Virus record (IMG/VR): IMGVR_UViG_3300029319_000001
DNA length: 64,000 nt
From: a virus
Taxonomy: Duplodnaviria; Caudoviricetes
Reading direction: 5' to 3' (one strand)
The notes beneath the pieces are model-generated. The model did not search any database. It was not told the origin of the DNA and saw nothing but the letters and a program-made list of their open reading frames with translations. Shown here piece after piece: positions 1,562 to 33,744 of this stretch (position 1 is its first letter; the number at the start of each line of letters is the position of its first letter). The position numbers and the translations under genes are program-made.

Positions 1562-2539
1562 ATGAGATCTAAAGTATTCTTTATTAATGGTGGTGCAGGT
1601 AGAGTGGTTGCTTCTATCCCTGCATTAGAAAAATATGCTGAAACTCATGACGATTTTATAATTGTCTGTGAGGGTGGTATGAATTTCTACAGAGGACATC
1701 CTGTATTACATAAGTATGCCTATGATAATTGGCATAAAGGATTGTTTGAAGATAAGATTAAAGATAGAGATTGTGTAACACCAGAACCATATAGACAGTG
1801 GCATTATTATAATCAGAAGTGTAGTCTTTCTCAAGCATTTGATATAGAAATCAATGGGTTAGATGAACCTAGAGAATTACCAGCACCCAATATTACCTTG
1901 GCAAAAGGTGAGGGTATTCAAGGAATGCAGTTGGTTGATGAAGCAATAAACACTACAGGAAAAGAAAAAGTTATAGTTATTCAACCATTTGGTAGAGGTA
2001 TTATGGATACTGGTGGGTATATGTTTGACCCCACCTCTCGTAGTTTTAATCTATCAGATATTAGTACTATCATTAATAATTTAAAGAAAGATTATTGTGT
2101 GATTGTAATGTCTGAGTTCCCATTCCAGACAGAAGAGGGAGAATCTAAGGATGCATATATTGTTCCTAACATAGAAGACATTCGTATCTGGGCAAGTATC
2201 ATAGACAGAGCAGATCATTTCTTAGGATGTGATTCTGTTGGTCAACATATTGCTAAGGCAGTTGGTAGCACAGTTACTGCTGTGATTGGATCAACATATC
2301 CAATCAACATATCCTATCCAGATGATCCAAAATTTGATATAATAGATCTAGGTGAAGATAGAAGAACTTTTTCTCCTATCAGATTAACTATGGAAGATTA
2401 TCAAGACATACAGAATGATGAGTGTATGTCTATGACTGAGAAAGATATCTCTGCAGTAATTAAATCGTGTAGAGATAAACTTGGCAAATCTGTCAAGAAA
2501 AAAGTTGTACAAGCAGAAACTAAGGGGTTTGGTAAATGA
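1562..2539 (+). CDS. Glycosyltransferase, GT9 (heptosyltransferase)-like
   Basis: VIVIQPFG and IIDRADHFLGCDSVGQHIAKAVG match the GT9 'aD.fig.DSg..HlAaA.g' motif; next to heptose-pathway genes. Confidence 0.65.
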   Translation: MRSKVFFINGGAGRVVASIPALEKYAETHDDFIIVCEGGMNFYRGHPVLHKYAYDNWHKGLFEDKIKDRDCVTPEPYRQWHYYNQKCSLSQAFDIEINGLDEPRELPAPNITLAKGEGIQGMQLVDEAINTTGKEKVIVIQPFGRGIMDTGGYMFDPTSRSFNLSDISTIINNLKKDYCVIVMSEFPFQTEEGESKDAYIVPNIEDIRIWASIIDRADHFLGCDSVGQHIAKAVGSTVTAVIGSTYPINISYPDDPKFDIIDLGEDRRTFSPIRLTMEDYQDIQNDECMSMTEKDISAVIKSCRDKLGKSVKKKVVQAETKGFGK

Positions 2540-4356
2540 CACAGTGGATTGCTGGCATAGCAAGAGGACATAACGGAGGGGTCTGTCTTCTTAAAGATGG
2601 TGAAATTGTATTTGCTGTAGAAGAGGAGAGAATTTCTCGTCGCAAGTATGATGGTGCTCCTCTTGCATCTATGATGTTAATCAAAAAGTATACTGATAAA
2701 CTAGATTATCTTGTCATTGCTCACACTCAGATGACAGCAAAAGATGCACCTGTATTAGAATATTCTTTTGAATCTGCCTATGTAGGTCTTGCAAGAAAGA
2801 TGGGATTGATCGATGATAATTCTGGACAAGATCCAAAGAAAGGACATTCGCAAGTTATAGACTTAGGAAATATACATCATAAGTTACATGCTGCATGTGC
2901 ATTCTATCGTTCTGGATTTACTGAGGCAGCAGCATTAGTAGTTGATGGTGCAGGTACATTCATTGACTTCTCTATCATGGATAGACAGGAGACAGTATGG
3001 GAAGTTGAATCTATATTTGATTGTACTTATCCTAAAGAAATTAATACTGTATGGAAACATCTAGGTACTAGAGGACCTGCTACTACAGCAACCATTCCTG
3101 ACATGGAAGCAAAGGAAGTTTATCCTACTGAGAAAGGAACCTTTGAGTATCTACTTGACGAGACTTGTGGTATTGTGAAAGCATACGAGGCAGTTACACA
3201 GTATTGTGGATGGCATGCTATTGAGGCAGGTAAAACTATGGGTCTATTTCCATATGGTAAACCTAATCCAGAAGTACCTAAGATCTTTAAGAAATTTGGT
3301 ACGGTAGATAGGAATGTAATGATACCTACCTATCCAAATGCAGGACATGTTAATGTGCATGAGTATCCTTTCCTTGATGATCATCCAGATCCTAATGATC
3401 CTAATTCAGATCTAACTAAGTATCAGAACAGAAGAGACTTAGCATATGCAGTACAAACTGAAACACAAGAAGCAGTCTTAAAACTTATTCGTAAAGCAGT
3501 TGAGATGACTGGTAAAAAGAATATAGTATTGTCTGGTGGGTATGGGTTGAACTGTGTTGCAAACTACTGGTATCTTGAGCAGTTAAAAGATGAGGGCATC
3601 AATTTATTTGTAGAACCAGTTAGTAATGATGCTGGTACTGCTATTGGAGCAGCATTATATATTTACTATAAAACATTGCAACCTTTTCAAGTTGAAGATG
3701 CACTTAAACCTCAGATAAACACACTATATCTCGGTCCTGAATACAATTATTCTTTAGATGATATTGTAGATGTTAGTGATAAGTATAATGGTGTTGTTAA
3801 TTATGCTAATCATGAAGATGTAATTAAGTTGATTACCTCTGAAAATATTGTAGCAATGTTCCAAGGTAAGTCTGAGTCAGGTCCTCGTGCTCTTGGTAAT
3901 CGTTCTATATTATATGATCCTCGTGATCCAGAAGGCAAAGACTTTGTTAATACTGTCAAGCATCGTGAATACTTCAGACCATTTGCAGGTACTATTCTAA
4001 AGGAACATGTTCATGATTGGTTTGATCTTCGTGGTATGGATGAGACTCCATTCATGATGTATGCTGTTGAATGTAAACCAGGTATTGAAGAAAAGATTCC
4101 TGCTATTATTCATGTAGATAAGACATGTAGAATTCAAACTGTAACAAAGGAACAAAATAAAAATTACCATGAATTAATTAGTGAGTTTTATAAACAAACT
4201 GGTTGTCCTATCCTGTTCAATACTTCTTTTAATTTGGGTGGTGAACCCTTAGTTGAAACATTAGAAGATGCTGTCAAAACTATTGCCAATAGTGACATTG
4301 AATATCTTTACTTACCTGAGTATGGTAAACTAATTACTATTAAAAATGATAAGTAA
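2536..4356 (+). CDS. O-carbamoyltransferase (NodU/CmcH/TobZ family)
   Basis: AVEEERISRRK, HHKLHAACAF, VVDGAG, EAGKTMGL, LSGGYGLNCVAN, DAGTAIGAA, GPRALGNRSIL, KHREYFRPFA, NTSFN. Confidence 0.93.
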   Translation: MTQWIAGIARGHNGGVCLLKDGEIVFAVEEERISRRKYDGAPLASMMLIKKYTDKLDYLVIAHTQMTAKDAPVLEYSFESAYVGLARKMGLIDDNSGQDPKKGHSQVIDLGNIHHKLHAACAFYRSGFTEAAALVVDGAGTFIDFSIMDRQETVWEVESIFDCTYPKEINTVWKHLGTRGPATTATIPDMEAKEVYPTEKGTFEYLLDETCGIVKAYEAVTQYCGWHAIEAGKTMGLFPYGKPNPEVPKIFKKFGTVDRNVMIPTYPNAGHVNVHEYPFLDDHPDPNDPNSDLTKYQNRRDLAYAVQTETQEAVLKLIRKAVEMTGKKNIVLSGGYGLNCVANYWYLEQLKDEGINLFVEPVSNDAGTAIGAALYIYYKTLQPFQVEDALKPQINTLYLGPEYNYSLDDIVDVSDKYNGVVNYANHEDVIKLITSENIVAMFQGKSESGPRALGNRSILYDPRDPEGKDFVNTVKHREYFRPFAGTILKEHVHDWFDLRGMDETPFMMYAVECKPGIEEKIPAIIHVDKTCRIQTVTKEQNKNYHELISEFYKQTGCPILFNTSFNLGGEPLVETLEDAVKTIANSDIEYLYLPEYGKLITIKNDK

Positions 4357-4978
4357 TGTAATGGTCATTGATGACTTTATTGATCTAGAATACCAAGAAA
4401 AAATTAAAACTACTCTATTTGGTGAGGAAAGACCTGACATGGAACAGTTTCCTTGGTATTATCTCGAAGATGTTACAGCATCTGGTGATAGTGATAGTCA
4501 GCATAGACCAGGACTTTCTCATGTATATGTTGACTTGCCTTATGAAGATGAAAGAGATTTAAAAACTGGAACTATAAACTCTGATGTTTTAGGAGGTCAT
4601 ATAATAAGTGATTACCATGAATTATTTGTTCCCTTACTTGAAACAGTTGTTCGTAAACTTGGATTAAATCAGGCAAAAGTTCTTCAAGGTCGTTCTTTTT
4701 TACAGTTTCCAATAAACACAGATGGAACTATCGACAAACCACACATAGATATTCATGGTAATAACAAATTTGTAGTTGCACTTTACTATGTTTGTGATAG
4801 TGATGGTGATACAGTTATATACAATGAAAAAGTACAATCAGAAAAATATACTATCAAGCAGAGAGTCACACCAAAACAAGGTAGAATAGTTATATTTGAT
4901 GGTCATCTATATCACACAGCAGAGCAACCTACAAAAAGTAATACTAGATGTATTGTAAATTATAATCTAGGACTATGA
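4346..4978 (+). CDS. 2OG-Fe(II) oxygenase superfamily protein
   Basis: PHID, ALYYV..SDGDT, PKQGRIVIFDGHLYHTA, RCIVNYN. Confidence 0.8.
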   Translation: MISNVMVIDDFIDLEYQEKIKTTLFGEERPDMEQFPWYYLEDVTASGDSDSQHRPGLSHVYVDLPYEDERDLKTGTINSDVLGGHIISDYHELFVPLLETVVRKLGLNQAKVLQGRSFLQFPINTDGTIDKPHIDIHGNNKFVVALYYVCDSDGDTVIYNEKVQSEKYTIKQRVTPKQGRIVIFDGHLYHTAEQPTKSNTRCIVNYNLGL

Positions 4979-5406
4979 GTAAACCATTTATACATGAAAA
5001 AAAATGGATCAAAGTTTTTGTTAATGGAACCTTTGATCTCTTACATCCTGGTCACATAGCACTACTAAATTATGCTAAATCTTTAGGAGATTATGTTGTT
5101 GTTGGTATTGATACTGATGACAGAGTGAAAGAAAAAAAGGGAAGCACTCGTCCAATATATAATCAGGAAGACAGAGGGATAATGCTTGTCTCTCTATCAT
5201 CAGTTGATGAAGTGACATACTTTGATAGTGATGAGTCTCTTGAGGCATTGATAAAGGATGTCAAACCTGATATAATGATAGTTGGTTCCGATTGGAAAGG
5301 TAAGTCAGTCATTGGTAAACACAGTGCTGGCAAATTAATATTCTTTGATAGGATTGAAAAGTATGCAACTAGCAAGACAATACAATGTATTATTGATAGG
5401 GGATAG
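4975..5406 (+). CDS. Cytidylyltransferase-family nucleotidyltransferase (HldE/RfaE domain II-like)
   Basis: NGTFDLLHPGH (HxGH), VVGIDTD, RPIYNQEDR, VGSDW. Confidence 0.85.
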   Translation: MSKPFIHEKKWIKVFVNGTFDLLHPGHIALLNYAKSLGDYVVVGIDTDDRVKEKKGSTRPIYNQEDRGIMLVSLSSVDEVTYFDSDESLEALIKDVKPDIMIVGSDWKGKSVIGKHSAGKLIFFDRIEKYATSKTIQCIIDRG

Positions 5407-6145
5407 TTGCACCGATGAATGGGTGTACGGATCTTGTGATCGTTTAAGTCCAGAAGGACCTATCCCTGTTATGAAATATCAGGAGAAGCAAACTGCACCT
5501 GGTATGGCAGCAAATGTCAATGAAAATTTAAAATCTCTTGGTATTAATGTAAATTTTATAACAAACAAAGAAAAGATAACAAAGACTAGGTATGTACATC
5601 AGAGATCTAATCAACAGGTCATGCGTCTTGATACTGAACCAGAAATAGAACCTATTAAACAACATCAAATTATGATTGCAGCGATGCATCAACAGTATGA
5701 TGCTATAGTTGTATCAGATTACAATAAAGGATTTGTAGATTTGAAATTGATTGAAGATCTTGCATTAAAAAATCCACAGATAAAAGTTTTTGTTGATACT
5801 AAATCAACTAGACCTCCGAGGAGAGATAATATAATATACAAAATTAATCAGAAAGAATTTGAAGCATTACAACCAGATCATATTCCCAACTCTAGTAATT
5901 GTATAGTTACTATGGGTGCTAACGGTGCTCTATGGAATAAGAAACAATTCCAAGTGCCTGTTGCTAGAACATTTGATGTTACTGGTGCAGGAGATACATT
6001 CTTAGCAGCATTAGTCTTCTATTATATACAATTAGATTCTATGGATGAGTCTATTGCTTTTGCTAACAAAGCAGCAGCAATAGCAGTTGAAAATCCTGGT
6101 ACATACACATTAACAATGGAGGATGTTGATGAGATATTGCGTTGA
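5345..6145 (+). CDS. PfkB-family sugar kinase (HldE/RfaE domain I-like); likely start about 5363
   Basis: LIGD..TDEW.YG...RLSPEGPIPV, PGMAANV..N...LG, VVSDYNKG, DVTGAGDTFLA. Confidence 0.88.
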   Translation: MIGLKSMQLARQYNVLLIGDSCTDEWVYGSCDRLSPEGPIPVMKYQEKQTAPGMAANVNENLKSLGINVNFITNKEKITKTRYVHQRSNQQVMRLDTEPEIEPIKQHQIMIAAMHQQYDAIVVSDYNKGFVDLKLIEDLALKNPQIKVFVDTKSTRPPRRDNIIYKINQKEFEALQPDHIPNSSNCIVTMGANGALWNKKQFQVPVARTFDVTGAGDTFLAALVFYYIQLDSMDESIAFANKAAAIAVENPGTYTLTMEDVDEILR

Positions 6146-6476
6146 TATTGATAGCACTATCTGTACACCTGGTACATGTGGAAATTGTGTCTATGAGGGT
6201 TCTACTCCTAAGAAAGATCGGATAGAAAAAATTAATAAATTATATGAAGAGGGTCATTATATAATATACTTTACTGCTCGTGCTATGGGTAGGTCTAGTA
6301 TGCTTCCACATCATGAGGCAAAACAAAAGGCAGAAGAGTTATTAAAACCACTAACTAAATGTCAACTAGATATATGGGGATGCAAATACCATGAATTAAT
6401 CATGGGTAAACCACATGCTGATATTTTTATTGATGATAAAGCAATGAATAGTGAGGATTATTTTGAAGGAAACTAA
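6129..6476 (+). CDS. Short HAD-family phosphatase
   Basis: DIDSTIC (DxD motif I), YFTAR, MGKP.ADIFIDDKA. Confidence 0.75.
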   Translation: MRYCVDIDSTICTPGTCGNCVYEGSTPKKDRIEKINKLYEEGHYIIYFTARAMGRSSMLPHHEAKQKAEELLKPLTKCQLDIWGCKYHELIMGKPHADIFIDDKAMNSEDYFEGN

Positions 6477-6825
6477 ACCAAAATTTGTACCAAAAGGATG
6501 GGGTTGGGAGAAATGGATTGCCAACTCACCTGAGTATTGTGGAAAGTTACTCTTCATTAAGAAGAACCACAGATGCTCATGGCATTATCATATACTAAAG
6601 GATGAAACTTTTTATTTACAGTCAGGTAAGATTCATTTATTCTATGGTAAGACAGATAATTTAGAGGATGCGAAGACAATGATACTAGAACCAGGCGATA
6701 GTTTCCACTGTTGTAGAGAGACTAGACATCAGATGGTTGCAATAGAAGATGCAGAACTATTTGAATTTTCTACACAACATTTTGACTCTGATTCAAACAG
6801 AGTTATACCTGGAGATACTCTTTAA
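6451..6825 (+). CDS. Cupin-fold protein (sugar isomerase-like)
   Basis: VPKGWGWE, SWHYH..KDETFY, LEPGDSFH.....HQM, EFST.H.DSDS.R. Confidence 0.75.
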   Translation: MRIILKETKPKFVPKGWGWEKWIANSPEYCGKLLFIKKNHRCSWHYHILKDETFYLQSGKIHLFYGKTDNLEDAKTMILEPGDSFHCCRETRHQMVAIEDAELFEFSTQHFDSDSNRVIPGDTL

Positions 6826-14378: not shown

Positions 14379-14831
14379 ATGGCTAAATTACCACCAAAAC
14401 CATTACAATCTGAAATTTTACAAGCAGTACACAGTGCTAAAACAAAGAAGGAAAAGATTAAAATCCTTCAAGATTATAGATCACCAGCATTAGTATCATT
14501 ATTTGTTTGGAATTTTGATGAAAGCATTGAAAGTGCTGTGCCAGAAGGAGAAGTGCCTTATACACCTAACACTTCACCAACTGTAGATAGTCAAAGTAAA
14601 CTGTCTAGTCAGTATAGAACTCTTTACAACTATGTTAAGGGTGGAAACGATGGACTTAAAAGAACTAGGAGAGAGTCTCTATTCATAGAGTTGTTGGAGT
14701 CATTACACCCTGATGAAGCAGAAGTTGTTTGTTTAGTTAAAGATAAAGATCTTAAGAAGAAATACAGGATAACCCATAACACCGTCAAGGAAGCATACCC
14801 TGATGTTGAATGGGGAAATCGTGTTAGATGA
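14379..14831 (+). CDS. Conserved T4-like phage hypothetical protein
   Basis: RRESLFIELLESLHPDEAEVV...KDK. Confidence 0.65.
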   Translation: MAKLPPKPLQSEILQAVHSAKTKKEKIKILQDYRSPALVSLFVWNFDESIESAVPEGEVPYTPNTSPTVDSQSKLSSQYRTLYNYVKGGNDGLKRTRRESLFIELLESLHPDEAEVVCLVKDKDLKKKYRITHNTVKEAYPDVEWGNRVR

Positions 14832-15595
14832 CAAGAATATTAGTTACAGGACATAAGGGATTCATAGGCAACTATGTCTTCAATCACCTTAGACATGATG
14901 CAGGTTACGGATACTTAGTTGATGGCATGGATTTTCCTGATGACATTGGGGATTTCAAGTCAGAGATTAGTATGTTTGATAAACCTTATGATTACATCAT
15001 ACATCTAGCAGCATTTGCTGCCATCAGAGAGAGTGTAGATAATCCAGATAAGTTTTGGGAAAATAATGTAGAAAAATCTAAACCTATCTTTGATTATTGT
15101 AAGAGATACAATACTAGATTACTTTATGCTAGTTCAGCACAAGTAGAAGAGTGGTGGCAAAATCCTTATGGTATTACCAAGAAAGTTAATGAACTACAAG
15201 CACCACCTAATAGTGTGGGGATGAGATTCCAGACAGTATATGGAGAAGATAGCAGACCTGATATGCTATTCAGAATGTTGCAGGATAATACAGTTAAATA
15301 CATTACCAATCATAAAAGAGATTGGATTCATGTTAAAGATGTCGCTAGAGCAATTTGTTATCTAATGTCTAGTAAATATACTGGAACTATTGACATAGGG
15401 ACAGGTGAGACTACAACTGTTAAAGAGTTAGCAGAAGCATTTGGTTATGTTGATCTACCTGTCAAAGATAGTACACCAGGCGAAAGAGACATCACATGTG
15501 CCGACACCACTGCCTTGCGTGAGTTGGGTTGGTTTCCTAGAGAAAAAGTGTTAGAATGTATTCCTGAGGGAAAACCGAACTCTTTTTTCAGATAA
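14828..15595 (+). CDS. NAD-dependent epimerase/dehydratase (SDR)
   Basis: ILVTGHKGFIG, IHLAA, YASSA, PYGITK (YxxxK), RDWIHV.DV. Confidence 0.88.
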   Translation: MTRILVTGHKGFIGNYVFNHLRHDAGYGYLVDGMDFPDDIGDFKSEISMFDKPYDYIIHLAAFAAIRESVDNPDKFWENNVEKSKPIFDYCKRYNTRLLYASSAQVEEWWQNPYGITKKVNELQAPPNSVGMRFQTVYGEDSRPDMLFRMLQDNTVKYITNHKRDWIHVKDVARAICYLMSSKYTGTIDIGTGETTTVKELAEAFGYVDLPVKDSTPGERDITCADTTALRELGWFPREKVLECIPEGKPNSFFR

Positions 15596-24295: not shown

Positions 24296-25189
24296 GTGTC
24301 AAGAGACGGATCACCAAGAGTAAGAAGAATATCAGATGTTCTACCGTTGTTTACAAAAGTAGCAACGACTAATCATTATGAGTTATCATTTCCAGCAATG
24401 CCTTGGCAATTGTTGACCTATATTAAGTTAAAGAGTGAAGATACTATAGATAACGCATTTGTCTTCAGAGATCTAGGTTTATTGTGTAAAGGTGCAGCAT
24501 TACCTGGAACTGCATATGCTACAGCTCAGATTAATGGTAACTATATGGGTATTAATCAAAAGTATGCTCATACAAGAATATACACAGATGCATCATTTAC
24601 TTTCATGGTTGATGATGATTATAGAGTAATTAGATTCTTTGAACTATGGCAAGAATTTATATCAAGTGGATCAAGCACTATGAGAAATAGAAAAGCATAT
24701 TATCATAGAATGCAGTATCCTTCAGAATATAAGTGTGATACTTTAAATTTAAAGAAATTTGATAAGAATCATGGTAATAGTATAGATTATACTTTCCTAA
24801 ATTCATTTCCAGTTAATATCACTCCTGTTGCGGTTAATTACGATACAGCTCAAATCTTAGAAATATCGGTTTCATTTGCTTATGATAGATATTACTTTGG
24901 TAATCTTAGAAGACAAGATACTAGGACTAATCAAGGTAGTGGCAATCCCAACAACCCATATCCAGCTAGTTTCTTAGACCATGCAGGTAATGCTGTAGGT
25001 AATACTCCTACAACTGGTACCAGCGATCTCGCAAAAACTGGTAATTCAGGTGGTACTTCATATCCAGGATTAGAAAATGGTGACATTGTTCTTGATCCTA
25101 ATAAAGAATATAGTGATTCTGAGACAATGAAGATCCTTCTGACATCTCCAGATAATAATGGTGGTTTACCTAAAGAATATATCGCATAA
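24296..25189 (+). CDS. Tail-tube-fold protein (gp54/gp19-like baseplate-tube initiator)
   Basis: LCK.A.LPG, F..WQE.I, Y...N.FP.NI..V...YD, V.F.Y; position between gp4 and gp26. Confidence 0.65.
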   Translation: MSRDGSPRVRRISDVLPLFTKVATTNHYELSFPAMPWQLLTYIKLKSEDTIDNAFVFRDLGLLCKGAALPGTAYATAQINGNYMGINQKYAHTRIYTDASFTFMVDDDYRVIRFFELWQEFISSGSSTMRNRKAYYHRMQYPSEYKCDTLNLKKFDKNHGNSIDYTFLNSFPVNITPVAVNYDTAQILEISVSFAYDRYYFGNLRRQDTRTNQGSGNPNNPYPASFLDHAGNAVGNTPTTGTSDLAKTGNSGGTSYPGLENGDIVLDPNKEYSDSETMKILLTSPDNNGGLPKEYIA

Positions 25190-25223: not shown

Positions 25224-25910
25224 ATGGGACTTGCTAAAGATTTAAAAGTAGGAACTAAACAATCTCACTCTGCTGCAGAGAATACTAAGTTTGTTTCTTC
25301 CTTTCTTCGTGGTGTAGTAAACAAAGAAAAATATAGACAACTTGTTGCTAACTATTATTTCATATACCACACTATAGAGTCAGAGGTTAGAAGATTAAAA
25401 GATGATCCTCTCGTTGGATCTTTAGATATTAAAGAACTTTACCGTCATGATGCATTAGCAAAGGACTGTGAATACTTCTTTGGTGCTGACTGGAGAGATA
25501 ACATTTATCCTTCAAAAGCATGTCAACAATACATTGATCGTATTGGAAAGGTTGCCCATGAAGAACCAGAACTTCTCATAGGACATCATTATACAAGGTA
25601 TCTTGGAGATCTATCTGGTGGACAGATTCTTAAGAATATTGCAGAGAAAGCATTAAAGTTAACTGATGGAGGTCTAGACTTCTATGAGTTTCCTGATATA
25701 GAGAACAAAAAAGAATTTAAAAACACATATCGTGCTACACTAAATAAGATGCCTGTGACACAATCACAAGTGTCTGCTATCGTTACTGAAGCAAATTACG
25801 CATTTCGTTTAAATATGTTCATGTTTGATGAATTGGATGGTAATGCGTTTAAATCTGCAGTTGCTTACTTCTGCGGAGTACTTAGAGGAAATACTGATGC
25901 CATTACCTAA
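25224..25910 (+). CDS. ho1: Heme oxygenase
   Basis: GTKQSHSAAENT.FV..FL.G, LIGHHYTRYLGDLSGGQIL, FYEF, EAN.AF.LN. Confidence 0.95.
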   Translation: MGLAKDLKVGTKQSHSAAENTKFVSSFLRGVVNKEKYRQLVANYYFIYHTIESEVRRLKDDPLVGSLDIKELYRHDALAKDCEYFFGADWRDNIYPSKACQQYIDRIGKVAHEEPELLIGHHYTRYLGDLSGGQILKNIAEKALKLTDGGLDFYEFPDIENKKEFKNTYRATLNKMPVTQSQVSAIVTEANYAFRLNMFMFDELDGNAFKSAVAYFCGVLRGNTDAIT

Positions 25911-26610
25911 AATTGTTACCCCGACCTATACATTAACTATTCCTTCGTCGGGTAAAAAAATTACATATAGACCTTTCCTAGTCAAAGAAGAAAAAGTTCT
26001 TATCATGGCAATGGAAAGTGATAATATGGATCAAGTTGGTAGAGCAATTAAAGATGTTCTATCTGCATGTATCAATACTCGTGGAATTAGAGTAGATAAA
26101 TTATCCACATTTGACATTGAATATCTATTTCTTCATGTTCGTGGTAAATCTATTGGTGAAACTATTGAGGTCATGGCAACTTGCCCTGATGATGGTCAAA
26201 CTAAAGTTCCTGTAACAGTAAGTATTGATGAAATACAAGTTAAGATTGATCCAGAGCATAGTAAAGATATTAAATTAGATGAAAAGTTAACTCTTAGGAT
26301 GAGATATCCTTCTCTTACTGAGTTTGTTAATCAAAATTTTGGAGAAAAAGATCAAGTAACTGCATCATTTGATGTTATTGCTTCTTGTATAGACATGATT
26401 TATACAGATGAAGAAACATGGTCTGCAAAAGATCATTCTAAAAAAGAATGGGTTGCATTTGTAGAGACATTGCCATCAAATGCATTTAAGCAGGTAGAAA
26501 AGTTTTTCAATACCATGCCTAAATTAGAGCATACTGTTACAATTACTAATCCCAATACAAAGATGGAGAGCGATGTAAAGTTGGAGGGTTTAGCAGCTTT
26601 TTTCAGTTAG
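25897..26610 (+). CDS. gp26: Baseplate hub subunit gp26; true start MPLPK at 25897
   Basis: TPTY.L.IPS.GKKI.YRPFLVKEEK, FDIEYLFL.VRGKS.GE, MPKL, GL..FF. Confidence 0.88.
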   Translation: MPLPKIVTPTYTLTIPSSGKKITYRPFLVKEEKVLIMAMESDNMDQVGRAIKDVLSACINTRGIRVDKLSTFDIEYLFLHVRGKSIGETIEVMATCPDDGQTKVPVTVSIDEIQVKIDPEHSKDIKLDEKLTLRMRYPSLTEFVNQNFGEKDQVTASFDVIASCIDMIYTDEETWSAKDHSKKEWVAFVETLPSNAFKQVEKFFNTMPKLEHTVTITNPNTKMESDVKLEGLAAFFS

Positions 26611-26631
26611 CGATGTTGCACCAAGATATCG
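26583..26631 (+). promoter_or_regulatory. Putative -1 programmed ribosomal frameshift signal
   Basis: GGAGG 26583-87, 10 nt, T-TTT-TTC 26598-604, 6 nt, hairpin CGATGTT/GATATCG. Confidence 0.7.
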
Positions 26632-26789
26632 TGGCGTTTTATAAAATTAATTTCGCCTTGATGCAGCATCATAAATACAGTTTGAGTGATATCGAAAACA
26701 TGATTCCGTGGGAACGAGATATATACATTAATCTCCTCCAACAATATATTGAAGAAGAAAATCTAAAAAACCAACAAGCTAGAGGCTAA
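26613..26789 (+). CDS. gp51: gp51-like baseplate hub assembly chaperone segment (absent from ORF track)
   Basis: FYKINFALMQHHKYSLSDIENMIPWERDIYINLL. Confidence 0.85.
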   Translation: MLHQDIVAFYKINFALMQHHKYSLSDIENMIPWERDIYINLLQQYIEEENLKNQQARG

Positions 26790-28564
26790 TGTCGGTACAA
26801 GCAAGTAAAGTATTTCCAAAATCTAGTAGAACTGATAGACAACGAGCATCTACTGATAGGGATTTTGCTGGAAATTCTAAGGAGGATTCAAAAGCATTTA
26901 TAGGACTTAGTAAAAATCTTTTTGCGATTCATAAGAATTTAGGAGCAATTGCTGATTTACTGCAAACACAAGCATTAAATGAGAAAAAAGAAGATGATGC
27001 AGAATTAAAAAAACAACAGAGAGACGAAGATGCAAGGCAAAAATCTGGGGCAGAAAAAGCACTTGAAGGGGTTTTAACTAATGCAGTACTAAAACCGATA
27101 CAGAAGATGAAGGACACTACGGCAGGTATATTTGAACGACTAGTCAAAGTGCTTGGTGCATTGGGTTTAGGTACGATTGCTGTGAAAGGTCTAAAAGGTA
27201 TAGAAGCTTGGATGGAGGGAGATAAAAGTATTCTTGAGCAATTAGAAAAAGATATTAAAACAATATTAGGTGTAGCTGCTGGAGTATTTCTTGCAATTAA
27301 TGTTGGATTACCACTTATTTCATCTGCAATAGGAACTGTAATAGGTAGTATTGGAGTGGGTGGAGCATTTAAAGGAGTGTTAGCATTACTAGGAAATCCT
27401 TATGTTTGGTTAGGAATTATTGCTGCTGTAGGTATAGCATATACAGGAACAGAACTTTATAAGTTTTTAAAAGGTGAATATGGTCCTGATGGAGAAGGTA
27501 TTGGATCTTACGCTCCTATTAACCAAGAAGCAATTGCAGAAATTCAAGAAGTTGGTATGGAACAATACCGAATAAATGAGAGAAACCGAATTGATAATTT
27601 ACTTCAAGCAGATCCAAGTTTGGTAAATGAAAAAACTGGTGAGATGAAAAATGATGCTGAACTCGCAATTATGAGCATGACCAATGATAATGCAAAATTA
27701 TTAATGGCTTATAATAATAGACTCAGGATGTCTCATACTGGTAATTGGGATCAATGGGATCCTAAAAATATGTCTGAAAAGGATACGCAGTTATTCAATA
27801 CTATTCCAAAACTCATTGAAAATTTTAGAAGTGAATGGTCTAAGTTTTATTCACTAGCACAGGAAATAACTGCATTAATGGATGGTGCAAGAACCTTTGA
27901 AGAGGTACCTGATAATATAATGACAAAAATTGATGCAATGATGGTTGAGCAACAACTTCACAAGGATAATATGATTAAGTATCTCGATGCTGTTAAAGCA
28001 TCAAGAAAGAAGATGTCAAATGATGGTAAAAATTATCTAGATGCTATTTTAAGAAAAAATGATATGGGTAATTTACTTTATAATGCTGATTGGTGGGGTA
28101 AAATGGTAATGCCAGGTCCTATTCTAGATGCAGTTCAAGTTAAAGAAGGTCTTACACCAGGATTAAGAAAATTAGCAATCAATACTTTTAATAATCTAGG
28201 TGAAATGAATACAGATCTTGTTGAAGACATAGAAAGAATGCCAGAAGGAAATCCAGTATTAATGGGTGAAGATACTAATTCTCTTTCTCAAAATAATGAA
28301 AATTCTGATCTAGATATTTCCTCAAGTGCTAATGCTTTTACGAATGAAAATTTGTCATTAGCAAATCAAATTAGCGATTATGATGCTTTTAATGAGAAAT
28401 TCAATATAGTTCCATTTGATATTAGTCAGGATGATGCTAATGTTGATTCTGATATAACTTCCACTAGTTTCTTTGCTGAAACAGATTTACCAGCTTTTTC
28501 AATTTTTGATAATGATAATTTTTATAGAGATTTGGCTCAAAGTAATTATGGAGTCTATGACTAA
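26789..28564 (+). CDS. Tape-measure-like protein (gp29 position)
   Basis: Coiled-coil N-terminus with Gly/Ala hydrophobic segments, directly after gp26/gp51. Confidence 0.55.
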   Translation: MSVQASKVFPKSSRTDRQRASTDRDFAGNSKEDSKAFIGLSKNLFAIHKNLGAIADLLQTQALNEKKEDDAELKKQQRDEDARQKSGAEKALEGVLTNAVLKPIQKMKDTTAGIFERLVKVLGALGLGTIAVKGLKGIEAWMEGDKSILEQLEKDIKTILGVAAGVFLAINVGLPLISSAIGTVIGSIGVGGAFKGVLALLGNPYVWLGIIAAVGIAYTGTELYKFLKGEYGPDGEGIGSYAPINQEAIAEIQEVGMEQYRINERNRIDNLLQADPSLVNEKTGEMKNDAELAIMSMTNDNAKLLMAYNNRLRMSHTGNWDQWDPKNMSEKDTQLFNTIPKLIENFRSEWSKFYSLAQEITALMDGARTFEEVPDNIMTKIDAMMVEQQLHKDNMIKYLDAVKASRKKMSNDGKNYLDAILRKNDMGNLLYNADWWGKMVMPGPILDAVQVKEGLTPGLRKLAINTFNNLGEMNTDLVEDIERMPEGNPVLMGEDTNSLSQNNENSDLDISSSANAFTNENLSLANQISDYDAFNEKFNIVPFDISQDDANVDSDITSTSFFAETDLPAFSIFDNDNFYRDLAQSNYGVYD

Positions 28565-30063
28565 TGGCAACTTTAATGCCTACTAAGGATCAAGCACTAG
28601 AAATTGGTGCTGGCATTCTTGCTATCAGAGAGACAACTCAAGGTATTCGTAAATCTTTAGGAAAGGAAGTTAAAAGAGATAAAGCCGCATCTAAGAAGAA
28701 ACAAGGATTTCTCCGAAGAATGTTTGCGAGGAAAAAGAAGGCAGATGCAGAGAAAATGATTGAAGCAAAGAAGAAGAAAAATTTTATGGGAAAAGGAGTA
28801 ACAGCTGTTGCAGCTGCAGGTAAATCTTTCGTGGAAAGACTATTTGGTGCTGCTGGTGCATTATTAGTTGGATTTCTTGTTGTTAATTTACCAAAAATTA
28901 TTGAAGAAGTAAAAAAAATTGTTGAGTGGTTACAAAGTGTAAAAGATTGGGTAGATAATTTTGTTGATAAAGTAACAGAAGTTAGTGATGTAATTATAAA
29001 CACAGTTAAAGAATGGATATCCAATATAAAAGAAATGTTTGGGTTTGAAGAGAAGAAAGATGAGATTGAGAAACAGATGGAAGAGGGTAAAAAAGTTGCT
29101 GAGACATTAGAAAAAGATTGGAATGCAGATCAAGAAAGAATTAAAAAAGATATAGAAGAAGCAAAAAGAGAAGGTGAAAGGATAGTTGATGGTTTACCAA
29201 AATCTGATCAAGAGGTTGTTGAAGAATCTAATGCAAGAGTTAATGAAATAAAAGCTTTACAAGAGCAAAGAGATTCGGGAAAAATAACACAACAACAATA
29301 TGAAGCAGAGGTTGATAAGTTGTATGAAAATGAGAATATTGGTGATTCTAAAGAGTCACAAATATTAAGTAACCAAATTGATAGAAACGAATTAAGTCCT
29401 TCTGAATTTTTTGGTACTAATCAATATGGTGATGATAGTACTGGTGAAGGAGAAGAAGAAATCAATACTGATCTTGAAAAACTTGATGATAATGTAAATT
29501 TAGAGGGAACCAACACAAATGAGAATAAAGATCTCTCTTTACAGAATAATGGAGGAGTTAATTTTGTCAGCACTAATAACTCAGGCACAGAAAATGGGGA
29601 AGAACAACCAAAAGAAGTAGTATATCACAAACCTGGTATGAGTATGAAATTTTCACCACCAGGTATAGGAGTTGATGGACTAACCAAAGAAGAAGCAAAA
29701 ACAAGATTTCTAGAACTTCATAATAAACATCCTGACTTAAATTTTGATGAAGAACATGAATATCAAGCACTTGAGATAGTTCTTCATGATAAATTTAATG
29801 TCAATACAACTTCTTTACAAGTTGAGGGTCCCGCAGACTTTATAAAGTCAATAAAAGCTAGATATCCCAATGATGAGATGAATCTAATATCACCAACTGG
29901 CGGTAAAACTATTGTTGTTCCTGTTGATACCTCCCAAAGCGGAATAAATAAAAATGGAACAAAAGTAATTTCTAGTGGTAGTGAAGAGGGTACAACTGCA
30001 GTCGTTGAAATTTCAGCAAACCCAATAAAGAAAATTAATCAGTTCAATAGACACTTTGTATAA
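28564..30063 (+). CDS. Second long coiled-coil tail/baseplate protein
   Basis: K/E-rich helical repeats, hydrophobic segment, acidic low-complexity middle. Confidence 0.5.
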   Translation: MATLMPTKDQALEIGAGILAIRETTQGIRKSLGKEVKRDKAASKKKQGFLRRMFARKKKADAEKMIEAKKKKNFMGKGVTAVAAAGKSFVERLFGAAGALLVGFLVVNLPKIIEEVKKIVEWLQSVKDWVDNFVDKVTEVSDVIINTVKEWISNIKEMFGFEEKKDEIEKQMEEGKKVAETLEKDWNADQERIKKDIEEAKREGERIVDGLPKSDQEVVEESNARVNEIKALQEQRDSGKITQQQYEAEVDKLYENENIGDSKESQILSNQIDRNELSPSEFFGTNQYGDDSTGEGEEEINTDLEKLDDNVNLEGTNTNENKDLSLQNNGGVNFVSTNNSGTENGEEQPKEVVYHKPGMSMKFSPPGIGVDGLTKEEAKTRFLELHNKHPDLNFDEEHEYQALEIVLHDKFNVNTTSLQVEGPADFIKSIKARYPNDEMNLISPTGGKTIVVPVDTSQSGINKNGTKVISSGSEEGTTAVVEISANPIKKINQFNRHFV

Positions 30064-31367
30064 TGGCAATATCACCAACTGCTGCTTCTACCTTTGAAGA
30101 AATCACTATAACTTCGTCTAACGGTGAAAAAACTGTTAGTTTAATTGGTGGTGTTACTAGATTGCAGTATTTTGAGACTTTAATGTCTCCAATGTGTACT
30201 GCTAAAGTAGAGGTAGTTAATACAGGTAATACTATTGATGGTCAATCATTATATAATGGTTTACCTATTCGTGGTGGAGAAAGAGTATATTTTAAAATAA
30301 AGACTCCTGTTGAGGCAGAGGCAGAACAAGAAGAACATCTTGAGAGTGTTTTGTATGTCAATAAAGTAACTGATGTTGTATCTGACAAAGCAACTGAAGT
30401 TTTTACTTTACATCTTGTTTCTAGAGAAGCTCTTAGCAATGAACAAAGTAGAGTAACTAGAAAATTCTACGGACAAACTATAGATAAGAGCATTGGTGAA
30501 ATTGTTAAGTTAGTAGAACCTTTAAAACAAGAACCATTTGAGGAAACTGAAAACATTTATAATTTTATTGGTAATTTAAGAAAACCTTTTACACTTATAT
30601 TATGGTTAGCATCTAAAGCAATTCCTGTAGGAGCAACAAGTAGGAGTGCTGGATTTTTCTTTTGGCAAACTAGAAAAGGATTTCATTTTAGATCAGTTGA
30701 AGATATGATAAAAAAAGCAGTAGAGGGAAAAGATAACTTACAAAAATATTATTATTCTCAAACAGTAGATCCTTCTCTTGAAGATTCCCTTCAAAATGCT
30801 ACAAAAATTTTAGCATTTTCAGTTAGAGAAGATTCTGATGTTCTTACTGATTTGAATAGTGGTGTTAAATCTACATATAGAATATTTTTTAATCCAGTTA
30901 CTTTTGAGTTTACTCAACCACAAAATTCTGTATTTAGAGAAAAACCAGCATCAAGTTTAGGAGTTCCTGAAGAGGAAGAACCTAAGGTTGCTGATCCAGA
31001 AAACATTCCAGCCAACATGATGGCTTCTAGAATCATTACTTCAGTATATGATGTAGGAACCTTAGAAGTTGGTATATCTACAGATGTTAATTATGATCCT
31101 GTTGATAGCACATCACAGGCTATTACAAGATATGGTATGCTATTCAACACACAATTAACTTTGACAGTACCCACTAACACCAATTTAGTTGCTGGTGATG
31201 CTATAATGGTATTCTTCCCTAAGACAACTGATGAAGAAACTGTGATGGACGATAGGATGAGTGGAATATATATTATAAAGGATCTCACTCATTTATTCCT
31301 ACCTAACTCATCTTATACAGCATTAAAAGTCGTTAGAGATTCACACGGTCTTTACCCACAACAATAA
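30063..31367 (+). CDS. Baseplate hub-like structural protein (gp27-like)
   Basis: YFETLMSP, FFFWQT.KGFHF.S, VP.N.NL.AGD, SG.YII..L.H; upstream of gp5. Confidence 0.55.
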   Translation: MAISPTAASTFEEITITSSNGEKTVSLIGGVTRLQYFETLMSPMCTAKVEVVNTGNTIDGQSLYNGLPIRGGERVYFKIKTPVEAEAEQEEHLESVLYVNKVTDVVSDKATEVFTLHLVSREALSNEQSRVTRKFYGQTIDKSIGEIVKLVEPLKQEPFEETENIYNFIGNLRKPFTLILWLASKAIPVGATSRSAGFFFWQTRKGFHFRSVEDMIKKAVEGKDNLQKYYYSQTVDPSLEDSLQNATKILAFSVREDSDVLTDLNSGVKSTYRIFFNPVTFEFTQPQNSVFREKPASSLGVPEEEEPKVADPENIPANMMASRIITSVYDVGTLEVGISTDVNYDPVDSTSQAITRYGMLFNTQLTLTVPTNTNLVAGDAIMVFFPKTTDEETVMDDRMSGIYIIKDLTHLFLPNSSYTALKVVRDSHGLYPQQ

Positions 31368-31369
31368 CT

Positions 31370-31636
31370 ATGACTACTAAAATTCCAAATCAAGATTTAA
31401 ACCATGCAAATATTGATCCTAAAGATGGAAAAGAACATGTAAATCATGGTATAATAGAATATACTGAAGCAGACCTCAAGATGCATAATGATGCATTCCA
31501 TGATCACACAGAAGATGAAGTAGTACCTAATGATGGTAAGATTAATGATTGGCACACTCGTCATGAAGATAAGCATCTAGAGATATATTGTGATAATCAT
31601 CCTGATTCATTTGAATGTAGAGTATACGACGACTAA
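31370..31636 (+). CDS. cp12: CP12-like protein
   Basis: C-terminal LEIYCDNHPDSFECRVYDD, the CP12 Cys-pair motif. Confidence 0.8.
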   Translation: MTTKIPNQDLNHANIDPKDGKEHVNHGIIEYTEADLKMHNDAFHDHTEDEVVPNDGKINDWHTRHEDKHLEIYCDNHPDSFECRVYDD

Positions 31637-33744
31637 TGATAGACGCATCGATTTTAGGTAATAGTCAATTTTTAGGTAGAGACGGATTCCGTTGGTGGGT
31701 CGGTCAGATACCTCCTCTTGATGCACAGGAAGATCAATTAGCAATTGGAGAGGGAGTAGGAAATAGAGTCAAAGTAAGGATTATGGGATATCATCCTTTT
31801 AATGAGGATATCTCTAACGAAGATCTTCCATATGCACAAGTTTTACTTCCTACAACTGCTGGTAGTGGTGGAGCACAATTTGCTAACTCAGTTAAATTAC
31901 AACAGGGTGATACTGTATTTGGATTTTTCTTAGATGGTGATGCTGCTCAACTTCCATTAATTATTGGACATTTTGGTAGAACATCGCTAGTAAATAATGA
32001 TGACTATAGTACACCATTTTCTCCTTTTACAGGATTAACTGAGTATACACCTACTAATGCTAGAAACCCTACGAGTGAAACAAACGAAAATAATAAAAAG
32101 TCACAACCACCACCAAGTAGTTCTACTGACTCTTCTTTAACAGATGCAGTAGGTACTGGTGTTAAGGTAATGGTTGCTGATACTTGTAAGAGTAATCCTA
32201 TCTCAGAGATGGCAAATACTGTTGAGAATTTGGGATTGAAAATTCAGCAGTTATCTTTAGCTGGATCTAGTTTAGACCTTGAACTTAAATCTGCTTCTGA
32301 TCTGATTGAACTGCAAGCAAATAAATTTGTTGGTACTATGTTTACCAAACTCTTTGATAAACTAGAGAGTGTTGGTTCTCAAGGATTAGAAAAATTATAT
32401 AAACGAGTCTACCGAATAGTATTTGCAGTAACAAAATCTAGTAATGCTGCCCATAGAGCAGGAGTTGCAGCACAAACTGCTATGGTTCCTCCTACATCAT
32501 TTTTACAAGAATCAATTGGTTGCGTTGCCAATAAAGTAGTTGAAGGATTAGGTGGTACGATTGAAGATTTATTGAAAGGATTTATAGATGAAGGAAGAGA
32601 CTATGCTGGATGTATGGGTGCTCAGTTTACTGGGGCATTTTTAAATGTAATTACAGATAGAATTGATAGTTTAATGTCAGGACCTTTATCTGCAGTAGCA
32701 AAAATTGTCGCACCAGGATTTAAGGTTGCAGATTTCTTATTAAGTGCTGCTGGTAACCTTGAGGATGTTGCTGCATTCCTTGATTGTAATCAGACTAACA
32801 AAGGTAAGTGCCCTGCAGATAAGCAATATGTTGTCGGTGGTACTAGTGAAGAGAAAGGAGACGATCCTTTTTCATATGTTATAAATGCAATGAATATATC
32901 TAGGGGTGCTGCTGATATGACTAATGCTTTTGAAAAGAAATGGGGTAAGTGGGATATATTTGGTGATGGTAGTTTATTAGAAGATAGTGGTAGTGGTACG
33001 ATTCCTGGTGGTTGTTATGGTGGTGAAAAGAGTAATTGTACAGGACCTTATATTGAAATATATGGTGGTGGTGGATCTGGTGGTGTTGCTAAACCTATCC
33101 TTGGTAATTTTATAGACAATACACCTGGATTAAGAAAGTTAGTTGGTGGAGTACAACGAACTGCAAGTATTTTAGGTGCTAAAATAAACAATGCTGGTTC
33201 TGGATATCGTTATCCTCCTATAGTTAATTTTAGAGACAAATGTAATATAGGATATGGTGCTGTTGGTCATGCTATTCTCAATGATGAGGGTGGTATAAAA
33301 GCTATTATTATGGAATCTACTGGAGAAAATTATCCTGCACAGTTAGATGAAGATACACAATCAAACTTAGGAATTACTACGATTCAAGTAGAAGCTGGTG
33401 GACGAGGATATCTACCAACAGATCCTATTATACTTCCTGGTATTAGTACATCTGGTAATGCATTCACAGAGGTTCCTCCAGTTGTTGTTACTGGTGTTGA
33501 AGGAGCTCCACTAGACTCTGTTGTTACTTCACCTGGATTTGGTAAAACTACACCTATATACGAAACTGTCGTAGAAAATGGAACTATAACTGCTGTTAAG
33601 GTTCTAAATATATTGAGGTTTGATGAGACACTTCCTACTCTTATAGTTAAGAGTAAAACTGGTATCGGTGCTAGATTAAAACCTCTGTTTGGTGAAATTA
33701 CCGATACTCAAGTTGGTATTATATCCGCAATCGACTGTATCTAA
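31636..33744 (+). CDS. gp5: Baseplate hub/spike protein gp5 (OB-fold N-terminus; no lysozyme motif seen)
   Basis: WWVGQI, RVKVRIMGYH, LP.AQVLLPT, GDTVFGFFLDG..AQ.P.I.G. Confidence 0.8.
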   Translation: MIDASILGNSQFLGRDGFRWWVGQIPPLDAQEDQLAIGEGVGNRVKVRIMGYHPFNEDISNEDLPYAQVLLPTTAGSGGAQFANSVKLQQGDTVFGFFLDGDAAQLPLIIGHFGRTSLVNNDDYSTPFSPFTGLTEYTPTNARNPTSETNENNKKSQPPPSSSTDSSLTDAVGTGVKVMVADTCKSNPISEMANTVENLGLKIQQLSLAGSSLDLELKSASDLIELQANKFVGTMFTKLFDKLESVGSQGLEKLYKRVYRIVFAVTKSSNAAHRAGVAAQTAMVPPTSFLQESIGCVANKVVEGLGGTIEDLLKGFIDEGRDYAGCMGAQFTGAFLNVITDRIDSLMSGPLSAVAKIVAPGFKVADFLLSAAGNLEDVAAFLDCNQTNKGKCPADKQYVVGGTSEEKGDDPFSYVINAMNISRGAADMTNAFEKKWGKWDIFGDGSLLEDSGSGTIPGGCYGGEKSNCTGPYIEIYGGGGSGGVAKPILGNFIDNTPGLRKLVGGVQRTASILGAKINNAGSGYRYPPIVNFRDKCNIGYGAVGHAILNDEGGIKAIIMESTGENYPAQLDEDTQSNLGITTIQVEAGGRGYLPTDPIILPGISTSGNAFTEVPPVVVTGVEGAPLDSVVTSPGFGKTTPIYETVVENGTITAVKVLNILRFDETLPTLIVKSKTGIGARLKPLFGEITDTQVGIISAIDCI

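Follow-up and report, generated by a model that had tools for sequence, protein, structure and literature searches.

A conserved slippery heptamer predicted to join gp26 and gp51 of a cyanophage by -1 frameshifting

In a cyanophage sequence of 64,000 nucleotides (nt) (IMG/VR record IMGVR_UViG_3300029319_000001; hereafter the window, whose positions are used for all coordinates unless a relative is named), the gp26 gene is followed in the -1 frame by a small open reading frame (ORF) related to T4 gp51. Computational sequence and model analysis leads us to the view that gp26 and this small ORF are very probably one gene, joined by a -1 frameshift at the heptamer T_TTT_TTC. Taken singly, none of the features of the junction (heptamer, hairpin or Shine-Dalgarno (SD)-like site) goes beyond chance within the window, and the weight of the argument rests on conservation among relatives and on homology across the junction. 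We also consider it likely that the frameshift is ancestral in the T4 superfamily, that gp26 and gp51 are its 'missing' tape-measure chaperones of the G/GT type, and that T4 and its kin swapped the frameshift for a gene duplication, with gp51, known for fifty years as a 'catalytic' factor of hub assembly, as simply the long form.

The gp26-gp51 junction and its predicted products

The elements of the junction are as follows.

25897-26610, plus strand: gp26 zero-frame ORF (short product), with ATG at 25897 and a TAG stop; 237 amino acids (aa), 26.9 kDa
26583-26587, plus strand: SD-like GGAGG, 10 nt 5′ of the heptamer; possible stimulator
26598-26604, plus strand: slippery heptamer T_TTT_TTC, putative -1 slip site, in register X_XXY_YYZ with the gp26 frame
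26604-26789, plus strand: -1 extension including the gp51 ORF; C26604 read twice, ATG at 26613, TAA at 26787-26789
26606-26635, plus strand: stem-loop 3′ of the slip site, with inner arms CGATGTT (26611-26617) and GATATCG (26625-26631)
26608-26610, plus strand: zero-frame TAG stop, with a single sense codon between it and the heptamer

Gp26 matches the Pfam family PF12322 (T4_baseplate) with an E value of 1.7e-69 over profile positions 2-218 of 219, and PHROG 150 with an E value of 4.4e-76 at profile positions 5-232. Its last zero-frame codons are GCT TTT TTC AGT TAG. Read in the -1 frame, which is open from 26550 to 26789, the same bases give TTT TTT CAG TTA GCG ATG and lead directly into the 58-codon gp51 ORF (26613-26789), whose ATG has no SD-like purine run directly 5′ of it. 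The -1 peptide matches PHROG 634, 'baseplate hub assembly catalyst' (E 1.1e-29), and also falls on PHROG 150, at profile positions 225-278. PHROG 150 therefore spans both gp26 and the -1 peptide, which was a first hint that the family contains single-chain members. The predicted fusion (25897-26604 joined to 26604-26789) has 297 aa and a mass of 34.2 kDa; its junction sequence is ...LEGLAAFFQLAMLHQD... and the predicted junction peptide is LEGLAAFFQLAMLHQDIVAFYK.

A preliminary description of the window, made from its sequence alone, had proposed a short gp26 and a gp26-gp51 fusion of ~296 aa, one residue fewer than the computed length, across the junction given above. The end codons of gp26, the position of the heptamer and the -1 register into the ORF at 26613 are all as it claimed, and the GGAGG 10 nt 5′ of the heptamer, the hairpin that begins 6 nt 3′ of it and hides the gp51 ATG, and the lack of an SD for gp51 are present in the sequence. 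The proposal of two products is supported by the comparison of frame, heptamer and homology that follows.

In the proposed mechanism, most ribosomes would stop at the gp26 TAG and release the 237-aa protein. A minority would slip back one base on U_UUU_UUC, with one tRNA-Phe on UUU in the P site and another on UUC in the A site, and both would re-pair with UUU UUU after the slip. The slipped ribosomes would then read on in the -1 frame to give a 297-aa protein in which gp26 is extended by a helical tail of 61 residues. In T4 the short form would correspond to gp26 and the long form to gp51; by fold, gene position and short/long logic the two forms would also be counterparts of the lambda G/GT and P2 E/E′ pairs. 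We infer the occurrence of the slippage, its rate and its ribosomal nature, and likewise that the short and long proteins would chaperone the tape-measure-like protein encoded downstream.

Conservation of the slip site and homology to T4 gp51

The preliminary description proposed conservation of the heptamer and of the -1 register in relatives as a check, and both are conserved. A scan of IMG/VR gave 69 loci, with gp26 identities from 99% to 32%, and at all 69 analysable loci the gp51 homologue lies in the -1 frame, as it does in nine further isolates of other families. Anchoring 73 loci on the heptamer yielded 61 distinct junction sequences, which span gp26 identities from 99% to 24% and cover cyanophages as well as Aeh1, nt-1, phiM7 and DLP6. 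The heptamer is TTTTTTC in 58 of these junctions, TTTTTTT in 2 and TTTTTTA in 1, and its first six positions are T without variation (61/61, 2.0 bits each). The distance from the start of the heptamer to the stop is 10 nt in 60/61 junctions, and this unvarying spacing of one codon between slip site and stop may be part of the signal itself. As judged from the aligned sequences, the universally conserved features of the signal are the heptamer and a stop one codon on, and nothing else.

Beyond the 61 junctions, the slip site and the frame relation are kept in eight isolates from other families. Sinorhizobium phage phiM7, Stenotrophomonas phage DLP6, Xanthomonas phage X1, Aeromonas phages Aeh1 and 65.2, and Vibrio phages nt-1 and Bakedbeans all have T_TTT_TTY one or two codons ahead of the stop and a gp51 that reads in the -1 frame, and Rhizobium phage RHph_Y68 has a T_TTT_TTG variant with the same frame relation.

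The first T of the heptamer is the third base of a codon that varies between junctions (AGT in 19, TCT in 19, GCT in 11, GAT in 8 and AAT in 4); the two bases 5′ of it carry 0.4-0.5 bits and other nearby third positions 0.1-0.9 bits. Elsewhere in these gp26 genes T occupies 42% of third positions, and Phe is encoded by TTT in 70% of cases. At the slip site the first Phe is TTT in 61/61 junctions and the second is TTC in 58/61, the second choice running contrary to codon bias.

Comparison with T4 extends the argument from the nucleotides of the junction to the proteins on either side of it. T4 gp51 (249 aa) matches PF12322 over residues 1-201 (E 3.9e-52) and PHROG 150 over its full length. Its residues 200-246 align to the window -1 peptide (BLASTP E 5e-8) from the second slip-site Phe onward, that is, from four residues before the gp51 ATG. 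With T4 gp51 as the phmmer query, a single domain (residues 64-245) maps onto residues 76-282 of the in-silico fusion, whose junction falls at 236/237; in the window, a gp51-type tail is continuous with a gp26-like domain only by way of the -1 frame. The preliminary description had given T4 gp51 as a gp26-like domain followed by this C-terminal segment and had proposed aligning the fusion to it; this description of gp51 was correct, and the alignment runs as one domain across the junction. Since T4 gp51 consists of PF12322 and the same tail, it is, on homology, the contiguous counterpart of the putative trans-frame product, and T4 gp26 is that of the short product. In a review of the T4 tail (PMC3004832), both proteins appear as chaperones of hub assembly whose function is unknown.

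T4 genes 26 and 51 are diverged paralogues on opposite strands, and gene 26 ends in the non-slippery GAG TTC TTT GAG. In Escherichia phage RB16 the order on one strand is gp54, a long and separate gp51 (247 aa) and gp26 (185 aa) (1610-3794 of the stretch examined), and the heptamer is absent; with its tandem genes RB16 seems to stand midway between a single frameshifted gene and the divergently placed genes 26 and 51 of T4. Because T4 and RB16 both encode gp51 separately and both lack the heptamer, the heptamer is missing exactly where it is unneeded. By tblastn, a long, separately encoded gp51 was found in ~1,380 records, mostly from phages of enterobacteria, Acinetobacter and Aeromonas.

These comparisons leave practically no room for coincidence, in which a Phe-Phe end in an AT-rich genome would give TTTTTTC by itself and the -1 register would be meaningless. 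The frequency of the heptamer in the window is indeed at the chance level, and a second in-frame T_TTT_TTC stands one codon 5′ of another stop (15583-15589) with no convincing extension behind it. However, the junction is conserved from 99% to 24% protein identity and in several virus families, loss of the heptamer coincides exactly with separate encoding of gp51, and homology runs unbroken across the junction. We regard coincidence as effectively refuted by the conservation and the cross-junction homology.

The second heptamer is itself in register and belongs to an epimerase-like ORF (14828-15595) whose product ends in ...NSFFR before the stop. The -1 extension of this ORF comprises ~30 codons and is unstructured-looking. 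The heptamer is probably there by chance, since the window holds 20 of them.

The start codons of gp51 bear on a different reading, in which gp51 is a separate small protein made from the ATG at 26613 by termination-reinitiation and the T-run is merely the Phe-Phe end of gp26. Over the 61 junctions the aligned gp51 start is ATG in 42, CTG in 11, ATT in 5, CTC in 2 and CTT in 1, so that ATG is missing from 19; nine junctions have no ATG, GTG or TTG among the first 14 codons, although these codons are still conserved at the protein level. In seven junctions a -1-frame stop adjoins the heptamer, which is therefore the only entry point into that frame. In Aeh1 and 65.2 the gp51 tail lacks any start codon, and in Bakedbeans none lies near its conserved N terminus. 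Separate initiation would also leave unexplained the invariant synonymous T, the bias-defying TTT followed by TTC, and a homology to T4 gp51 that extends from the slip-site Phe, ahead of the ATG, onward. What speaks for it is the ATG itself, which the majority of junctions possess and which in the window follows the TAG after 2 nt, together with database annotation, which follows this reading, and Vibrio phage YC, which has a TAATG overlap and no heptamer. We judge it improbable as the explanation of the junction. Because many relatives have no start codon, independent initiation is not the general mechanism, and as the sole route to gp51, the alternative named in the preliminary description, it is excluded for those relatives; it may occur alongside frameshifting in the window.

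The gp51 tail is unannotated in the public records of S-PRM1, DSL-LC03, Aeh1 and Aeromonas phage 65.2, only a piece of it, beginning at an internal ATG, is annotated for Xanthomonas phage X1 and Vibrio phage Bakedbeans, and none of the public records examined has a joined (ribosomal slippage) coding sequence at gp26/gp51.

The identical fusion could also be made by transcriptional slippage, in which RNA polymerase would add one U in the U6 run and so fuse gp51 in some of the mRNAs; the conserved element is a homopolymer run, as this would call for, and is lengthened to T7 in two relatives. Bacterial RNA polymerase generally requires about 8-9 or more consecutive A or T before it slips productively. 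Selection for such slippage would be expected to lengthen the run, whereas a C caps it at six T's in 58/61 junctions, and the X_XXY_YYZ register, which a polymerase mechanism would not need, is always kept. We hold this explanation to be very improbable. Eleven metatranscriptome runs contain parts of the window. Contigs from three RNA runs begin past 26629 and do not cover the slip site; contigs that cross it come from one run only, of unrecorded kind, and carry T6.

Counter-evidence, protein fold and genomic neighbourhood

Several points weigh against the frameshift and against the roles that we propose for its products. The support assembled here consists of sequence and model data. The window contains 20 copies of TTTTTTC where 21.1 would be expected, which places the heptamer at chance in this AT-rich sequence, and the window ATG lies 2 nt past the TAG stop, so that a free 58-aa gp51 could also arise by coupled re-initiation. 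Vibrio phage YC (Ackermannviridae) is the only exception sampled: its gp26 ends GCT TTC ATG TAA without a heptamer, its small gp51-like ORF is still in the -1 frame and starts at the ATG of a TAATG overlap with the stop (2200-2420 of the stretch examined). In certain lineages a free small protein is thus apparently enough, and YC is the sole sampled lineage in which it seems to be the norm. The structural matches of the gp26 N-terminal domain are moderate (Z below 8; Foldseek E against the PDB 0.077), and the identification of the downstream 591-aa gene as the tape measure, inferred from position, length and composition, is unproven. A stimulatory role for the GGAGG or the hairpin is likewise unproven, as the following data on these two elements indicate.

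GGAGG is present in 23/61 junctions. The wobble base of the Glu codon within it is G in 35 junctions and A in 25, and the purine run is explained by the invariant Glu-Gly dipeptide; as a conserved stimulator the element is unsupported. The window stem has 7 pairs, including two G.U, begins 6 nt past the heptamer and covers the gp51 ATG. Its predicted energy is -8.3 kcal/mol (z = -0.84), and 38/200 shuffled sequences fold equally well. The CGATGTT/GATATCG hairpin is limited to the near clade of the window, and as a conserved stimulator it was rejected: over 47 distinct sequences 50.5% of cells are paired, no better than in shuffles or slid controls.

Many cyanophage relatives have an alternative hairpin of 11 bp, which begins 5 nt past the heptamer and is stronger than that of the window. 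For this hairpin 72.5% of cells are paired versus 26-52% in slid controls, and its covariation lies above that of all 500 shuffles, with compensatory changes such as GGCUCA/UGAGUC versus GGCGCA/UGCGUC, including a change of U-A to G-C. In the equivalent positions of the window (26610-26620 and 26630-26640), 9 of the 11 pairs are possible, mostly as G.U.

The fold of gp26 was examined with an AlphaFold2 model (mean predicted local distance difference test score (pLDDT) 86.8). In an exhaustive structural search three small proteins matched best, over residues 1-96: 3fgx (Z 7.8), 2ob9, which is the tail assembly chaperone of HK97 (Z 7.4), and 3klu, YqbN (Z 7.1); the next unrelated match followed at Z 4.0. 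When the N-terminal domain was modelled alone (pLDDT 88), 2ob9 was the top match in the PDB (Foldseek E 0.077, probability 0.82). Among AlphaFold database (AFDB) clusters the domain matches 'Phage tail assembly protein' (E 4.9e-3), and residues 3-95 match 'Phage tail assembly chaperone protein, E, or 41 or 14' (E 0.026). The predicted structure of the gp26 N-terminal domain has a fold like that of HK97/P2-type tail assembly chaperones, with scores that are moderate and consistent. No sequence-level link of gp26 to solved structures or to Pfam chaperone families was found, and a Foldseek search of the PDB and Swiss-Prot with the whole gp26 model gave no significant match. In PBSX-like prophages the YqbN/XkdN gene stands between those for the tube and the tape measure.

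The remainder of gp26 shows features of its own. The gp26 proteins of T4, Aeh1 and nt-1 have the motif CPxCG immediately ahead of their ...GLxxFF end, and together with two Cys residues further towards the N terminus it is arranged like a zinc ribbon. This agrees with weak fold matches of gp26 residues 88-236 to zinc-ribbon proteins. Cyanophage gp26 has NPNT in place of CPxCG (26530-26580 in the window), and the metal site seems to have been lost there.

The genes around the junction are as follows.

24296-25189, plus strand: tube-like gene, gp54-type baseplate tail tube initiator (Pfam Phage_TTP_2, E 1.6e-19; PHROG 45 'tail tube', E 5e-38)
25224-25910, plus strand: heme oxygenase gene, between the tube-like gene and gp26 (Pfam Heme_oxygenase, E 1.8e-74)
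26789-28564, plus strand: 591-aa tape-measure-like gene, so called from its position, length and Gly-rich hydrophobic segments
28564-30063, plus strand: second long ORF, 499 aa, coiled-coil/hydrophobic, with no significant Pfam or PHROG family
30063-31367, plus strand: tail protein gene, 3′ of the 499-aa ORF (PHROG 350 and PHROG 1922 match this gene and the hub gene that follows)
31636-33744, plus strand: gp5-like hub/lysozyme gene, after the tail protein gene

A baseplate wedge gene and the genes for gp48 (tube cap), gp2 and gp4 lie upstream on the minus strand, and the region as a whole is a hub and tail-initiation module. The cassette is placed after the gp54-type tube-like gene and the inserted heme oxygenase gene, and before the tape-measure-like long ORFs and the hub genes. 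In relatives the gene at the position of 24296-25189 is annotated as gp54 or tail tube initiator. The heme oxygenase gene, which overlaps the start of gp26 by 14 nt, stands outside the frameshift mechanism; S-PRM1, DSL-LC03, phiM7 and nt-1 have no such gene at this place, and there the tube-like gene adjoins gp26. A complex prediction for the gp51 tail and the upstream tube-like protein returned a score of 0.00 with low pLDDT, which gives no verdict either way.

The 591-aa protein has no Pfam or PHROG match, its BLASTP comparison with T4 gp29 was not significant, and the only homologues found were close, unnamed relatives. In the Atlas, a T4_Tape_measure cluster appears at rank 84 with a score of 0.87. 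Genes at the same position in Aeh1, nt-1, phiM7 and S-PRM1 have no tape-measure Pfam match. Both the 591-aa and the 499-aa ORFs (26789-30063) contain coiled-coil and Gly-rich hydrophobic segments. Lysozyme-like domains occur in the positionally equivalent genes of two relatives, namely SLT in DSL-LC03 (3847-5217 of the stretch examined) and GH108 in DLP6 (4324-6486 of the stretch examined).

Three points of the preliminary description call for revision in light of these results. Its 'complete' frameshift signal was overstated, since the GGAGG and the hairpin are not conserved; 'tape-measure-like' overstates what can be said of the 591-aa protein, which has no detectable homology to any tape measure; and what lies upstream is a tube-like gene similar to that for gp54 (the tube initiator), not to that for the major tube protein.

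Comparison with known frameshift systems

No published report of a gp26-gp51 frameshift was found in the full-text literature, subscription journals being outside its coverage. The GenBank record of Acinetobacter phage Octan names its gp51 homologue 'tape measure protein assembly chaperone', so the idea that gp51 is a chaperone is not wholly new. To our knowledge, T4-like phages have stood out as being without the near-universal tail-chaperone frameshift. If the proposed reading is true, they would fit the general rule after all, gp26 and gp51 would gain a concrete, testable role as short and long tape-measure chaperones, and the T4 branch would provide a clear case of gene duplication replacing a frameshift. 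The annotation of hundreds of genomes, in which the gp51 tail now appears as 'baseplate hub assembly catalyst', as a piece from an internal ATG or not at all, would be corrected.

The lambda gpG/gpGT pair is the type case of a -1 frameshift that is reportedly conserved in the tail assembly chaperone genes of long-tailed phages. The lambda G/GT and P2 E/E′ pairs hold the tape measure during tail initiation. Like lambda G/GT, the window has two overlapping ORFs, of which the downstream one is in the -1 frame and the upstream one carries an X_XXY_YYZ heptamer close to its 3′ end, and the predicted products have a common N terminus. It also shares an N-terminal domain with the predicted chaperone fold. 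The placement of its cassette, between a tube-type gene and long genes that are tape-measure-like by position, length and composition, may correspond to that in lambda. In contrast to lambda gpG, gp26 is ~2-fold larger and continues beyond the chaperone-like domain into an additional C-terminal part. The lambda heptamer is G_GGA_AAG, whereas here it is U_UUU_UUC one codon from the stop, and there is no sequence similarity between the two systems; binding of the tape measure by the window proteins, unlike that in lambda, is presumed from the comparison.

P2 gpE/gpE′, the contractile-tail version of G/GT, comes from a myovirus, uses a -1 frameshift, as is predicted for the window, and lies between the tube and tape-measure genes, a placement to which that of gp26 may correspond; the AFDB cluster of its Pfam family is among the fold matches of gp26 residues 3-95. 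However, this fold match is weak (E 0.026), the sizes of the proteins differ, and no sequence homology was detected.

The signal of Escherichia coli dnaX, which consists of an SD, A_AAA_AAG and a hairpin, shares its three-part layout with the window, where the spacings of 10 nt and 6 nt come close to those of dnaX. Unlike dnaX, the window has a different heptamer, its SD-like site and hairpin are not conserved, and its predicted frameshift product is extended and not truncated. A dnaX-type three-part signal would be expected to show conservation of both the SD and the hairpin, and in the absence of that conservation we do not place the window signal in this class.

T4 gp26 and gp51 are true homologues: gp26 matches PF12322, gp51 consists of PF12322 and the same C-terminal tail, and both belong to the hub module. 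The difference lies in how the two forms are encoded, in T4 as two genes, with gene 26 ending in a non-slippery sequence, and in the window, on the reading favoured here, as one frameshifted gene.

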